From: a virus
Lineage: Duplodnaviria; Heunggongvirae; Uroviricota; Caudoviricetes
Reading direction: 5' to 3' (one strand)
IMG/VR virus record: IMGVR_UViG_3300032220_001761
Coordinates: 65,134 to 129,133 of that record
DNA length: 64,000 bases
Part shown: in pieces, positions 41,050 to 64,000 of the stretch
Numbering within the stretch: position 1 is the stretch's first letter
How the letters are laid out: each line of letters begins with the position of its first letter
Made by a program: the position numbers and the translations under genes
Notes under the pieces: model-generated
Databases searched by the model: none
Told to the model about the DNA's origin: nothing
What the model saw: only the letters and a program-made list of their open reading frames with translations

Positions 41050-41158
41050 TATAGTAGGCGCCTTCTCTTTGGATTCGTAGCGGAGTTTTAAAAACCAAAG
41101 TCCACAAAAAAAGCCAAGGTCTCCCTTGGCTTATTCACTAACCCACTAACTAACCAAT

Positions 41159-41470
41159 CTAATTTTTTTCTTCCCAGATTTTATTTACTATCTCCATCCG
41201 GTAATTCGGGTTGTCATCAAAAGCTTCACTTTTGTCGAGGAGAATATTTGCGATCCTTGACATCTTACTTCTTCGGATTGCACGTTTTTGTTTTGCGTCT
41301 TCATCCGGACTGAACAGTGCGATGAGACAGATAATTGAAAGGGTCATGGTCATTACTGCAAATGCCATCTCGTTAAGAGGATCTGCGAAGTAGATAACTT
41401 TTTGAATGTCACCACTTAAAGTGAGTAATGATATCAGAAGGGAGATTAAGAATCCTAAGAAGTATTTCAT
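41159..41470 (-). CDS. two-TM membrane protein
   Basis: Own promoter. Confidence 0.7.
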   Translation of the reverse strand: MKYFLGFLISLLISLLTLSGDIQKVIYFADPLNEMAFAVMTMTLSIICLIALFSPDEDAKQKRAIRRSKMSRIANILLDKSEAFDDNPNYRMEIVNKIWEEKN

Positions 41471-41538
41471 ATCGTTTTTTTTTGTTGAAGTAAATGTAGA
41501 TAATTCTATTTGAATAAAAAATATTTTCCAATTTTTAT

Positions 41539-41694
41539 TTAGGCCGTTTTAACCCAATTTAAAAAATAGTGAGCGGCTTCTAATTGTTCTCCACTGTAGA
41601 GTTTAGAGGCTTTGTTAATGGTTAATCCCTTTTGAACTCTTTCAAGTATTCCGTAATGGATTGCCCAGAATTTAGTGATTTTGTCTGAAGTCAT
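41539..41694 (-). CDS. small early protein
   Basis: Start MTSDK after promoter. Confidence 0.65.
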   Translation of the reverse strand: MTSDKITKFWAIHYGILERVQKGLTINKASKLYSGEQLEAAHYFLNWVKTA

Positions 41695-42126
41695 TTTAAT
41701 TTCTTTTAATTGGTTAGTGGGACAAATGTAGAAAATTCTACTTAGATAAAAAAATGTTTTCTGGGAAAAGTTGAAAAATATTTTCTGGCTGGAGTAGGTG
41801 CTGCGGGGGTTCCTCATATTTTATCTCCAGCAGAGATGTCGTAGGTTTAGGGAGGAGAATGCAGGGGAGAGATACTGGGGTTCCTCATATCATCTGAATC
41901 TGTTCTGGTTAAATCTGGTATTATCCTGGATCAGAGAAGGAACCTCGGGAAGAAGTCCTGATCTATCTCTGGATAGAGTTTTGATGAAGTAGTGTAAAGT
42001 AGGATAAATTCACATCTGTCCTCGGGGGTGCCTCGGGATAACCTCTATGCCGGCCTAAGTTTTTTTCTTTGGTCCACAAAAAAGGCCTGGTGATTAACCA
42101 AGCCCTTTTTAGCGGAATTAATTTCC

Positions 42127-42291
42127 CTAACTTATTCCCTTTATGATTTCATCCCTTTCCTCTTGAAGCATGACATTGTTCATGAATGAAATAAGGATGT
42201 CTGAGGCTGTTAAGCCATGTTCACCATTCTCTACCATATCAGCTATCATTTCACCGATGGCATCATTTCTCATTTGTTCGTTTGCACTCAT
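42127..42291 (-). CDS. small early protein (54 aa)
   Basis: MSANEQMRNDAIGEMIADM...; promoter and terminator flank it. Confidence 0.65.
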   Translation of the reverse strand: MSANEQMRNDAIGEMIADMVENGEHGLTASDILISFMNNVMLQEERDEIIKGIS

Positions 42292-42716
42292 TCTTTTATT
42301 TTTTTAATTGGTTATAAAGCTAATATAGAAAATTACACTTGGATAAAAAAATGTTTCCTTGGATTATTTTTTTGAGGTCCTGTTAAGGAATTCTTGTAGG
42401 GAGGGGGTTCCTCGTCTTGTATCCTATGGAGTAGGAAGTATAGATTTTCTTCGTACGTACGCACGTATACGCACGGAGCCCCTGGGGAGTCCCCGTTTAT
42501 AATCCGTTGCTGTAGCTGTTGCTGTAGCAATCTGGGGTTCCCACTTGTCTTATAGATGTCTAATAGATGTCTAATAGGTGTTTAGTTGGATTACCGTAGG
42601 GAGAGTAGCCTGCGGATCCCCAGCTGATTCTCCTTGCAGAGAGAAAATTTAGGTCAACAAAAAACCCAGACTTGTGGGTCTGGGTTTACTTTGAATCTCC
42701 GAAGAGTACCAATCAA

Positions 42717-61368: not shown

Positions 61369-61481
61369 TTTATTTTTTATTTTATTGGTTTTACAAATTT
61401 AAGAAATACTCTTTGAGATAAAAAATGAAAAGGAAAACCTGGGATCCACTGAACCAGTTTCACCCAGGCACCCACACATCT

Positions 61482-62444
61482 TTATTCGTCCTCGAATTTA
61501 TCCTCCACCATTCCAAATGCTGCATCAAATCCGGATGACTCTTTTCTAAGTTCTTCTTTCTCACTCTCAAGCACCTGACGAGCAGCTTCATCCAATTCAT
61601 ATCTGGTTGAGTCATACCTAACGTCTCCAGTTGCTGAAAGGTCAAAGAACATACGCTTATTCACTTCACCTCTACGATTCTTAGTGAAGGTAACATATCT
61701 TGTTCCGTCTTCTTCGAAACGTACCTCCATCATACCAGTGGTGTTGTGCTTAAGCTTGTTTGATCCAACAAAGCTACCTCCTTTGTTAACCTGTTGGATA
61801 CACAGGAAGCTCGTATATAAACTCTTCTCGTTCTTACCAGAGTTATTGTTACGCATTTGATCAATCAACCATTTCTCAGTGGCTCCGGTAGTCATACCAT
61901 TGGCTTCCTTTACTGTATCCTGCACCTCAACGAAGGAGTCAATTAATACGATGTCATATCCCCTGTTAAGCATATGCTCAACTATAAGCTTAGGGTTCTG
62001 ATCCAAATACTCTCCAAGGAAAAGAATGTCGATTGTACCGAACTTAGGGTAACGCTTCACGTAACCATATAAATCGATACGATCCATTTCAGCAGAGATG
62101 AAAAGAACTGAAGCTCCAGAGGTTTGTAGATCAGATAGGATATCCATCGCAACCGTACTCTTACCTACACCTGGGTCTCCAACCATCATAAAGTTAGTAG
62201 CCCTAGGAAACCCACCAGCGGTGGACAAAAGGGTATCAATGGGCTTACCCGTCTTGATCGGCTCAAAGAGCTTAGGATCAAAGGTTAAGTCCTCCATCTT
62301 GACACATTCAGGAAGAACGGTTAATACTTCAGGCTGGGACATCTGTACCCCTGCCGCAAGGCGCTTAGCCTCGAATGATTTGCGAACGCTCTCGGCTATC
62401 TTTGCTTTAGCCTCTTCGCTCATTGGTTTACGATTTGTACTCAT
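61482..62444 (-). CDS. RecA-fold AAA+ ATPase (RadA/Sms-like)
   Basis: Walker A GDPGVGKST, Walker B VLIDS, KLKH, KNRRG. Confidence 0.85.
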   Translation of the reverse strand: MSTNRKPMSEEAKAKIAESVRKSFEAKRLAAGVQMSQPEVLTVLPECVKMEDLTFDPKLFEPIKTGKPIDTLLSTAGGFPRATNFMMVGDPGVGKSTVAMDILSDLQTSGASVLFISAEMDRIDLYGYVKRYPKFGTIDILFLGEYLDQNPKLIVEHMLNRGYDIVLIDSFVEVQDTVKEANGMTTGATEKWLIDQMRNNNSGKNEKSLYTSFLCIQQVNKGGSFVGSNKLKHNTTGMMEVRFEEDGTRYVTFTKNRRGEVNKRMFFDLSATGDVRYDSTRYELDEAARQVLESEKEELRKESSGFDAAFGMVEDKFEDE

Positions 62445-62516
62445 TTGTGTGTGGGTTTTAATTTAACGCTAATGTAGAAAATTCTATTTAAAGAAAAAAA
62501 TGTTTTGCGAAATTTT

Positions 62517-62789
62517 TTAATCCTTTGCATAGTGCTTCAATAACCCAGGTGAAGCATTAACCATTGTACCGTTACAGTTAACAACGATGTTCTTTTGGTT
62601 AATCTTAGATATTCTCCCTGGTCCGTAATACCAACGTGGGTCATCGGAGATCACAATGTCACCAACAGCGAACTGAGACTTAGCTTCATTTCTACGATCT
62701 CTTTGGATTGTATTAATGGTTTTAACAAGATCACTTAGCTCTTCTTTAGAGCAGTTGCGAACGAATGTTTTAACTTCTAATAAATTCAT
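62517..62789 (-). CDS. small SH3/KOW-like early protein
   Basis: F.VGD.V, G.I.KIN.K. Confidence 0.6.
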   Translation of the reverse strand: MNLLEVKTFVRNCSKEELSDLVKTINTIQRDRRNEAKSQFAVGDIVISDDPRWYYGPGRISKINQKNIVVNCNGTMVNASPGLLKHYAKD

Positions 62790-62993
62790 ATGTCTTTTTT
62801 TTAATTGGTTATAACGCTAATGTAGAAAATACTACATAAGAAAAAAAATGTTTTTGAAAAAAACTTCACATCCGTCCGTCGCATCCTCTGCGGGGGTTCC
62901 TCAGTGCGTCGGAGGAGCACTGCACAGCAAAACTTTAGCCCACAAAAAAAGAGGCCGAAGCCTCTTCTTTACTACCAATTAAAACCTAACCAA

Positions 62994-63821
62994 TTAAGCT
63001 TTTACTCGATCCAAGTATTCTTTGATCTTCTGAGCCATCTCGTAATTCTCTTCCTCTACTGCTAGCTGTTCGAGATAGTTCCAAGCAAACTCCTGGTAAT
63101 CACCAAAGAGAGATTTATTGTAAGCTACCTTCAAATACATCTTAGCCCAATTATTCTCAAGATCCTCTTCATCCATCTCTTCAATACGTGAAGGAATGTA
63201 ATCCCATTCATCACGAATTTCGCAAGCCATCATGTAGGCATCTTCAGATCCACCCTCTGGGATATTCTCCATAATCACATCACCAGCCTTCATGTGATAC
63301 TCTCCAACATTGTGACCGAAGTCCTCATCAGCAAAGCTAACTTTAAAAGTTGCCTTCGGATATTTTTCACTTAGCGTTTGTATCAATCGAGCTGGAGTTG
63401 CCCAAGCTGTTTCAAACTTGATATCTCCATTCTCACGACGATCTTGCTCGTAAGCATTCCATTTGGTACCCCAAGCATTTCGTTGCCAATCGTACCAGTT
63501 ATCAAACCCGTACTTCTTAATAAACTGTACACTCATCTCTTTGGTAATCCCTCTGGATACACCAAATCTTTTCTCGTGCTCTTCCAAATCCCCAGCAGCA
63601 ATACGAGCTTCTTGCTTATCGTATTCTTCCTGCGAGATAATTTGAGCTGGAGAAGTTGTACCTTTTAGTTCCTCAGGTAGAGGAGCAGCCTTATGGAAAT
63701 CAATGTGCAAATGATGGCGTTTTCCATCCTCTTCATAAATAGAAGAGATCTCTGATTTAATTTTAGTTACTAGTTCTTCTGAACCTTCAATTGTAAGAAT
63801 GTTAACTACGTGATTTGGCAT
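62994..63821 (-). CDS. DUF1281/Api92-like ferredoxin-fold protein
   Basis: MPNHV.N.L, WYDW...WGTKWNA, FETAW. Confidence 0.8.
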   Translation of the reverse strand: MPNHVVNILTIEGSEELVTKIKSEISSIYEEDGKRHHLHIDFHKAAPLPEELKGTTSPAQIISQEEYDKQEARIAAGDLEEHEKRFGVSRGITKEMSVQFIKKYGFDNWYDWQRNAWGTKWNAYEQDRRENGDIKFETAWATPARLIQTLSEKYPKATFKVSFADEDFGHNVGEYHMKAGDVIMENIPEGGSEDAYMMACEIRDEWDYIPSRIEEMDEEDLENNWAKMYLKVAYNKSLFGDYQEFAWNYLEQLAVEEENYEMAQKIKEYLDRVKA

Positions 63822-64000
63822 GACTAATTATTATTATTGGTTATGTGGCAAAGATAGAAAAATCTACTTAAAGAAAAAAATGTTTTCTAAACTTTTTCAA
63901 ATGTTGGATCTTGAGGCAAATAAAACTTGCACTCGCTAACCCAAATAGGATCAAAGTCTAATGGCCAGTTAGCCCATCCATTCTTCCTACCATGGGGGTT

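Follow-up and report, generated by a model that had tools for sequence, protein, structure and literature searches.

Does a phage tie the two ends of its early messages together? The question arises in a stretch of DNA 64,000 nucleotides (nt) long (the window; positions 65,134 to 129,133 of IMG/VR record IMGVR_UViG_3300032220_001761), where short inverted repeats join the starts of small early transcription units to their ends. The window is part of a 190,674-bp contig from a large freshwater Bacteroidota phage, for which a named phage relative was looked for and none was found. A sequence-only reading had listed six repeats between a leader and the segment that separates stop codon from terminator, and all six are exact reverse complements at their coordinates. 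In a minority of early messages of this phage and its relatives, the segment at or just past the stop codon is complementary to the first 10-25 bases of the same message. Comparison of orthologous units shows that, in individual units, compensatory changes have preserved this complementarity with the predicted 5′ untranslated region (UTR). Very few bacterial genes, such as hbs and icaR, have proven end-paired messenger RNAs (mRNAs), and no published report of them in phages or Bacteroidota was found in the literature searched.

The early region, at about 38000-68000 in window coordinates, consists of small minus-strand genes, each under a repeated promoter made of a T-tract and a TAnnTT(T/A)G box, which is the −7 box of Bacteroidota sigma-A. 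In Flavobacterium psychrophilum this box lies at −12 to −5 (PMC9723704), which places the predicted transcription start (+1) of this phage at the fifth base past the box. Among the early promoters of the window, the predicted +1 is almost always a purine preceded by a pyrimidine. Since genes, promoters, and terminators all lie on the minus strand, the leader is the higher coordinate of each pair and the 3′ copy the lower. Leaders are about 25 nt long, A/C-rich, and without a Shine-Dalgarno (SD) sequence, and the core TAACCAAT is common to 19 early promoters. An SD-like 4-mer occurs in only 7 of 232 open reading frames (ORFs), which supports the earlier suggestion of an SD-independent host. Because one terminator often serves several promoters, it is not always clear which leader is the own-unit partner of a given 3′ segment.

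The DUF6011 and RadA-like units

The DUF6011 unit contains a 210-residue gene assigned by family match to DUF6011/phrog_20259 (42717..43349, minus strand, as are all features below), with a zinc ribbon at residues 118-148. A model of the protein structure (pLDDT 81) gave no clear fold match, the best Z being 4.5. The sigma-A −7 box of the unit, TAnnTTTG, fits the promoter pattern at 43378..43385 and sets the predicted +1 at 43373, and an intrinsic terminator is predicted at 42655..42687. The repeat listed for this unit is exact and longer than described. By pairing and folding, the leader segment 43354..43373 forms a helix of 15 bp that starts at +1 and has one G.U; past a bulge of 1 nt, 4 further bp follow, and the segment ends 4 nt before the AUG. 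Its 3′ complement, 42707..42726, spans the last codons and the TGA stop, such that the helix reaches into the gene itself.

Scans of viral contigs with single proteins yielded almost nothing; alignments did find orthologous units, and those of DUF6011 comprise 17 distinct units or lineages. Twelve of these form a Watson-Crick helix of 9-15 bp in seven sequence versions, in which leader and complement covary by base swaps on both strands and by an inserted repeat unit. Pairing with the own leader averages 9.2 bp, compared with 6.7 bp for other leaders (p<1e-4, 17 lineages). The versions are scattered over the protein tree, and five units are without the helix. In 12 of 12 cases the helix starts between −2 and +2, while its distance to the AUG ranges from 4 to 21 nt.

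The RadA-like unit encodes a RadA/KaiC-like ATPase of 320 residues (61482..62444, by family match). Its leader pairing segment (62448..62456) runs from +9 to +17 and ends 3 nt before the AUG; the 3′ complement (61470..61478) lies 3 nt past the stop and is followed by a terminator-like hairpin at 61468-61438. In this genome the predicted duplex would cover the initiation region and leave the 5′ end free. Close relatives of the unit change both strands together (p 0.03, five lineages). Among distant orthologues with about 45% identity, mostly from marine phages, pairing of at least 10 bp is present in 9 of 36 against 3.2 expected. In L114, L116, L118, L124, and L129 the duplex extends from +1 as far as the AUG region, which faces the bases around the stop codon, and in some units pairing extends to +25. 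Distant relatives would therefore pair the start-codon region with the stop-codon region of the same gene. By the comparisons above, the DUF6011 and RadA-like helices are very probably real and selected.

Extent and geometry of the pairing

Three other units have plausible panhandles, as judged by conserved pairing of 11-13 bp and by a helix in whole-mRNA folding. The first is a DUF1281-like gene (63821-62994) with a consensus leader at 63836..63843 and two tandem anti-leader copies at 62973..62997, the first of which lies over its TAA stop. The 8 bp described between the copy at 62987 and this leader exist; a longer partner, of 11 bp, is the leader at 64496-64486, whose promoter lies upstream and just beyond the window. 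Two relatives keep the copies, with own-unit duplexes of 12-13 bp. The second is the phrog_1987 gene (53517-53077), which has a consensus leader at 53530..53542 and, at 53059..53080, an anti-leader over its TAA stop followed by a degenerate second copy; three relatives keep 11-12 bp. Five further consensus leaders (55399-53883) use the same terminator. Pairing of 11-13 bp is kept in close relatives of both units, and the 3′ copy of both is lost where another promoter directly follows the gene.

The third is a two-gene unit that ends at 41159. The repeat listed there (41142/41713) is exact and out of register, as it begins 3 nt upstream of the predicted +1. In the transcribed register, the leader from the predicted +1 (41709..41718) pairs with 41158-41149 through 10 bp and a G.U. 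This partner belongs to tandem anti-leader copies at 41137..41158, past the stop of gene 41470-41159. The tandem 3′ copies reported earlier are thus present at 62973..62997 and 41137..41158, with the degenerate example in the phrog_1987 unit.

Pairing between leader and 3′ segment, proposed for all six repeats, stands in five units and is not supported for 58053/58490. As partner of the 58053 copy, the segment 58490-58496 has little in its favour: no promoter is found there, and the 7-bp match is lost in a relative of 93% identity. Of the six listed cases, the DUF6011 and RadA-like units are those in which compensatory change is shown. The panhandle inferred for early units in general is therefore borne out by compensatory change in two units, plausible in three, and not general; across the phage family own-unit pairing occurs in about 14% of units.

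Covariation of the two copies had been claimed from this genome; it appears across orthologous units and is not demonstrated within this genome alone. When own and shuffled UTR pairs of the genome were compared, the earlier expectation of an excess failed on three scores (p 0.32, 0.47, and 0.50). This result is negative because consensus leaders and consensus 3′ copies are interchangeable as partners and most units with such a leader are without a copy, as at nine terminators that lie behind consensus-type leaders. The anti-leader motif itself is present in 7 of 21 stop-to-terminator segments, compared with 0.63 in dinucleotide shuffles. For three units (DUF6011, RadA-like, and the 41159 unit) the own leader is the best of 34.

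The pooled set comprises 173 terminator blocks or units from 20 phage groups. Own-unit pairing of at least 9 bp is found in 25 of the 173, compared with 17.5 after shuffling within phages (p 0.006) and 8.7 after shuffling across phages. The excess over both shuffles suggests that 3′ segments track the leader consensus at the level of the lineage, with a smaller preference at the level of the unit. The helix starts between −2 and +3 in 20 of the 25 cases, and in 18 of 25 the 3′ strand begins from 6 nt before to 5 nt after the end of the stop codon and often includes the stop itself. In all cases the helix ends 3-24 nt upstream of the terminator hairpin and never inside it. Folding of whole predicted mRNAs gives the helix a probability of 0.9-1.0 in five units, while three control units have an open 5′ end. 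Where a single mismatch is enclosed by helix on both sides, it is G.U in four independent units of the phage family and A.C in none, which is mildly informative; flanking mismatches are not informative, as G.U does not discriminate between own pairs (5 of 12) and other pairs (21 of 67).

These features bear on whether the repeats act as RNA at all. Terminal repeats of mobile DNA cassettes, or neutral complementarity between A/C-rich leaders and U/G-rich 3′ segments, would accord with the negative within-genome test and with a region made of repeated promoter-terminator modules. Such modules resemble the PeSL cassettes of T4-like phages (PMC2839356, PMC4122927), in which repeated terminators and early promoters surround small variable genes. 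PeSL modules are intergenic, whereas the repeats here lie inside the mRNA, begin at +1, leave out promoter and terminator, and vary by gene and phage. Unit-specific covariation already contradicts the DNA-repeat or neutral account for DUF6011. Start at +1, position within the transcript, gene-specific sequence, and tolerance of G.U at internal mismatches together argue for RNA and against the DNA-level repeats entertained earlier, and 219 host units of similar A+T-rich composition show no excess. This account is highly improbable.

An alternative at the RNA level is that abortive transcripts of early promoters pair with the 3′ segments and alter termination, as abortive products of T7 phi10 do at T-phi (PMC2952870). 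In both phages the first transcribed bases are complementary to sequence at the terminator, and here the complementarity starts at +1 and covers the lengths of abortive products. In T7 the hairpin is targeted in its 5′ arm, whereas the helix described here ends upstream of the hairpin without overlap, so antitermination of the T7 type does not apply. RadA-like pairing also begins at +9 or extends to +25, and the abortive-transcript account is barely credible. Nor does the predicted helix place the true 3′ end at +1, as would suit covalent circles. With lengths of mostly 9-15 bp, the helices are probably also too short to be substrates of RNase III.

A Bacteroidota-wide mRNA convention was tried as an explanation and rejected, as 219 units in 2.0 Mb sampled from five genomes have no excess of pairing; this is a partial sample, and the host may be another. 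Bacteroidota genes with the same promoter-leader string were searched for a 3′ copy, and it was absent. Together these two results suggest that the leader is a generic strong 5′ UTR to which the complement was added behind chosen genes. In the Flavobacterium genome of the sample, TTGGTT-type (U/G-rich) segments precede the terminator in three units, two of which have AACC-containing leaders; this is not above chance.

A proposed ribosome-gated closure and competing mechanisms

On balance, selected early genes probably use a cis RNA panhandle whose closure is gated by ribosomes. During transcription of the gene, the short A-rich leader would be free and ribosomes would load; once the 3′ segment is made, the ends would pair and hide the 5′ end, the initiation region, or both. 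Initiation in Bacteroidota is favoured by low structure and by A at −3, −6, −12, and −13 (PMC7797042), and in B. subtilis distal sequences complementary to the ribosome-binding site (anti-RBS) repress translation (PMC12697547). Without SD pairing, initiation in the phage would need an unstructured A-rich leader, and end pairing would damp it. Paired ends would also shield the 5′ end from the route through RppH and RNase E/G, as RppH and RNase E require single-stranded 5′ ends (PMC3997798). RNase E/G is present in five of five Bacteroidota genomes, while RNase J is above the cut-off in none.

The 3′ strand overlaps the stop codon or lies next to it, so every ribosome that terminates there would melt the duplex. 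The gene would thereby be coupled to itself: a busy mRNA would stay open and an idle, finished mRNA would close. The outcome would be a burst of product from nascent and busy messages and the shut-down of idle ones. Melting of structure by ribosomes underlies translational coupling of the atpHA type (PMC7538156), where a ribosome that finishes one gene opens the structure that hides a start. There the opened start is that of the next gene, whereas in the phage it would be that of the same gene. The leader consensus would have its own role as a strong 5′ UTR, and the complement would have arisen secondarily behind some genes, often around the stop codon.

Several findings weigh against ribosome-gated closure. 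The helix is missing in 5 of 17 DUF6011 relatives and is thus dispensable. Duplex geometry differs among units, such that no single effect fits all cases: the RadA-like duplex of this genome starts at +9, leaves 8 nt free at the 5′ end, and offers no end protection, while one DUF6011 clade has the opposite geometry and keeps 12-13 bp with 20 nt free upstream of the AUG, where no masking results. A few 3′ strands begin 26-31 nt beyond the stop, out of reach of the ribosome. Within the genome, own-unit pairing does not exceed that of shuffles, with at least 9 bp in 5 units against 2.8 expected (p 0.08). Transcription starts were predicted from promoter spacing, and all p values are optimistic because the phages compared are related and not independent.

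Both geometries also bear on pure protection of the 5′ end, in which the panhandle would act as a 5′ stem-loop that prolongs mRNA life and leaves translation little changed. Several findings are consistent with this role, for which hbs is a precedent (PMC5737220): the helix start is fixed at +1 in most consensus units as well as in all 12 DUF6011 cases, one clade leaves 20 nt free, and the likely hosts have RNase E/G, whose pathway needs a single-stranded 5′ end (PMC3997798). The RadA-like duplex at +9 and the distant RadA-like duplexes over the AUG do not fit it, and a local 5′ hairpin would do the same without a distant partner. Pure end protection is therefore judged unlikely. Closed-loop enhancement would have the pairing keep the stop beside the start, such that subunits, once released, load again on that mRNA and output rises. 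Nearness of stop and start is the only feature common to all geometries, and an SD-independent host would suit this scheme as well. It conflicts with what is known of structured start regions and is improbable.

Ribosome-gated closure has two partial precedents. The hbs mRNA of B. subtilis forms a long-range helix of about 14 bp between its UTRs, which is tied to nuclease access and translation (PMC5737220). Its 5′ UTR is long and structured, with a strong SD and RNase Y/J1 chemistry, whereas the phage has leaders of about 25 nt, a helix from +1 over the stop codon, no SD, and several unrelated genes with the arrangement. In S. aureus icaR, a motif in the 3′ UTR pairs with the region where translation of the same mRNA is initiated, which is a precedent for repression (PMC3868564). 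That motif is an anti-SD sequence in a long 3′ UTR and creates a substrate for RNase III, whereas the phage target is an A/C-rich leader without SD, which leaves no place for anti-SD pairing, and the 3′ strand is within ribosome reach of the stop. As in both precedents, complementary segments are found in both UTRs of one transcript, here in five units.

Several unrelated genes of one phage family would thus use the device, and natural compensatory variants are at hand. With these variants it can be asked directly whether a closed loop benefits or harms bacterial-type mRNAs, and how initiation is controlled where SD pairing is switched off. Being short and portable, such UTR pairs could also serve to adjust expression in Bacteroidota.

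Orphan copies and other features of the early region

Some anti-leader copies have no own-unit partner. For the two named earlier, at 48865 and 39055, no cis partner was found in this genome; they are not orphans throughout, as relatives L011 (for the 48860 copy) and L033 and L040 (for the 39054 copy) have one. The first, 48877-48860, is predicted to lie in a hairpin loop within an element at 48853..48886 and can form as many as 15 bp with the leaders of other units. The corresponding operon of L011 has an own-unit partner of 13-14 bp. A pattern search for further copies of this element gave four hits, all unrelated-looking. The second, 39054..39067, follows the leader consensus of each lineage; no own-unit partner was found in this genome, L008, or L023, and the copy of this type in L023 sits behind a leaderless promoter. 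A third, U/G-rich anti-consensus copy (58053..58063) belongs to a unit that starts at a leaderless-type promoter (box 59177-59170).

These copies suggest a role in trans, in which 3′ segments, either within the intact mRNA or as small RNAs processed from it, would pair with the common leader and damp early translation as a class. Among 127 partner-less segments across the family, 6 fit 25% or more of the leaders in their own phage, compared with 0.7 in shuffles, which counts against a purely cis device. The behaviour of the 39054 family, with its L023 member behind a leaderless promoter, and the reach of 48877-48860 to other leaders point the same way. The partners in L011, L033, and L040 are what cassette shuffling predicts, however, and the copies of the DUF6011 and RadA-like units match no leader but the unusual one of their own unit (rank 1 of 34). 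Missed promoters and read-through are possible sources of orphans. Shuffling of the PeSL kind, which would explain lost partners, or missed promoters can explain the orphan copies, and trans-acting anti-leaders as the general explanation are very unlikely. As an addition to the cis panhandle, it is doubtful that the leader serves as an address through which some 3′ segments (above all 48877-48860) would also act in trans on about 20 early mRNAs. If true, the phage would encode a brake that acts on early translation as a class and evolves together with the leader consensus of each lineage.

Promoter boxes 4-5 nt upstream of an ATG are present in the window (59177-59164) and in relative L033 (3751, 9469, 11342, 13893, and 14874). 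By their spacing, they predict leaderless early mRNAs, which are frequent in L033. In relative L001, a short repeated hairpin ahead of terminators 7530 and 8500 displays the complement of the L001 leader consensus, and five tRNA-like repeats with variable middles lie between small genes at 7100-8220. Most early terminators of the window, from 62949 to 37893, end in a U-tract followed by GUG(G), which is conserved in relatives.

Within the window, the motif GAGGAACCCC has 16 occurrences, all on the minus strand between 37766 and 62902 and mostly between terminators and early promoters. Its position is kept in relatives, and it may serve the repeated cassette as a binding site for a protein or as an RNA element. 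A long structured 3′ segment precedes the terminator at 49938-49869 and is conserved in L011, L042, L328, L330, and L332; the core GCTGCCAA is common to the relatives, which makes the segment a candidate RNA element. Near-palindromic CGTA/TACG repeats occupy intergenic spacers at 48790, 42471, 45070, and 59750, and relatives have them too.

The first codons of gene 38821-38417 are repeated directly past its stop (near 38400), and terminators 42106, 39048, and 38398 are near copies of one another; both are signs of cassette recombination. At the end of the early region, 37200-37700 is a non-coding, G+C-rich, repeat-rich stretch that could be an origin or a genome end, and a similar stretch is found in L001 at 11300-11800.

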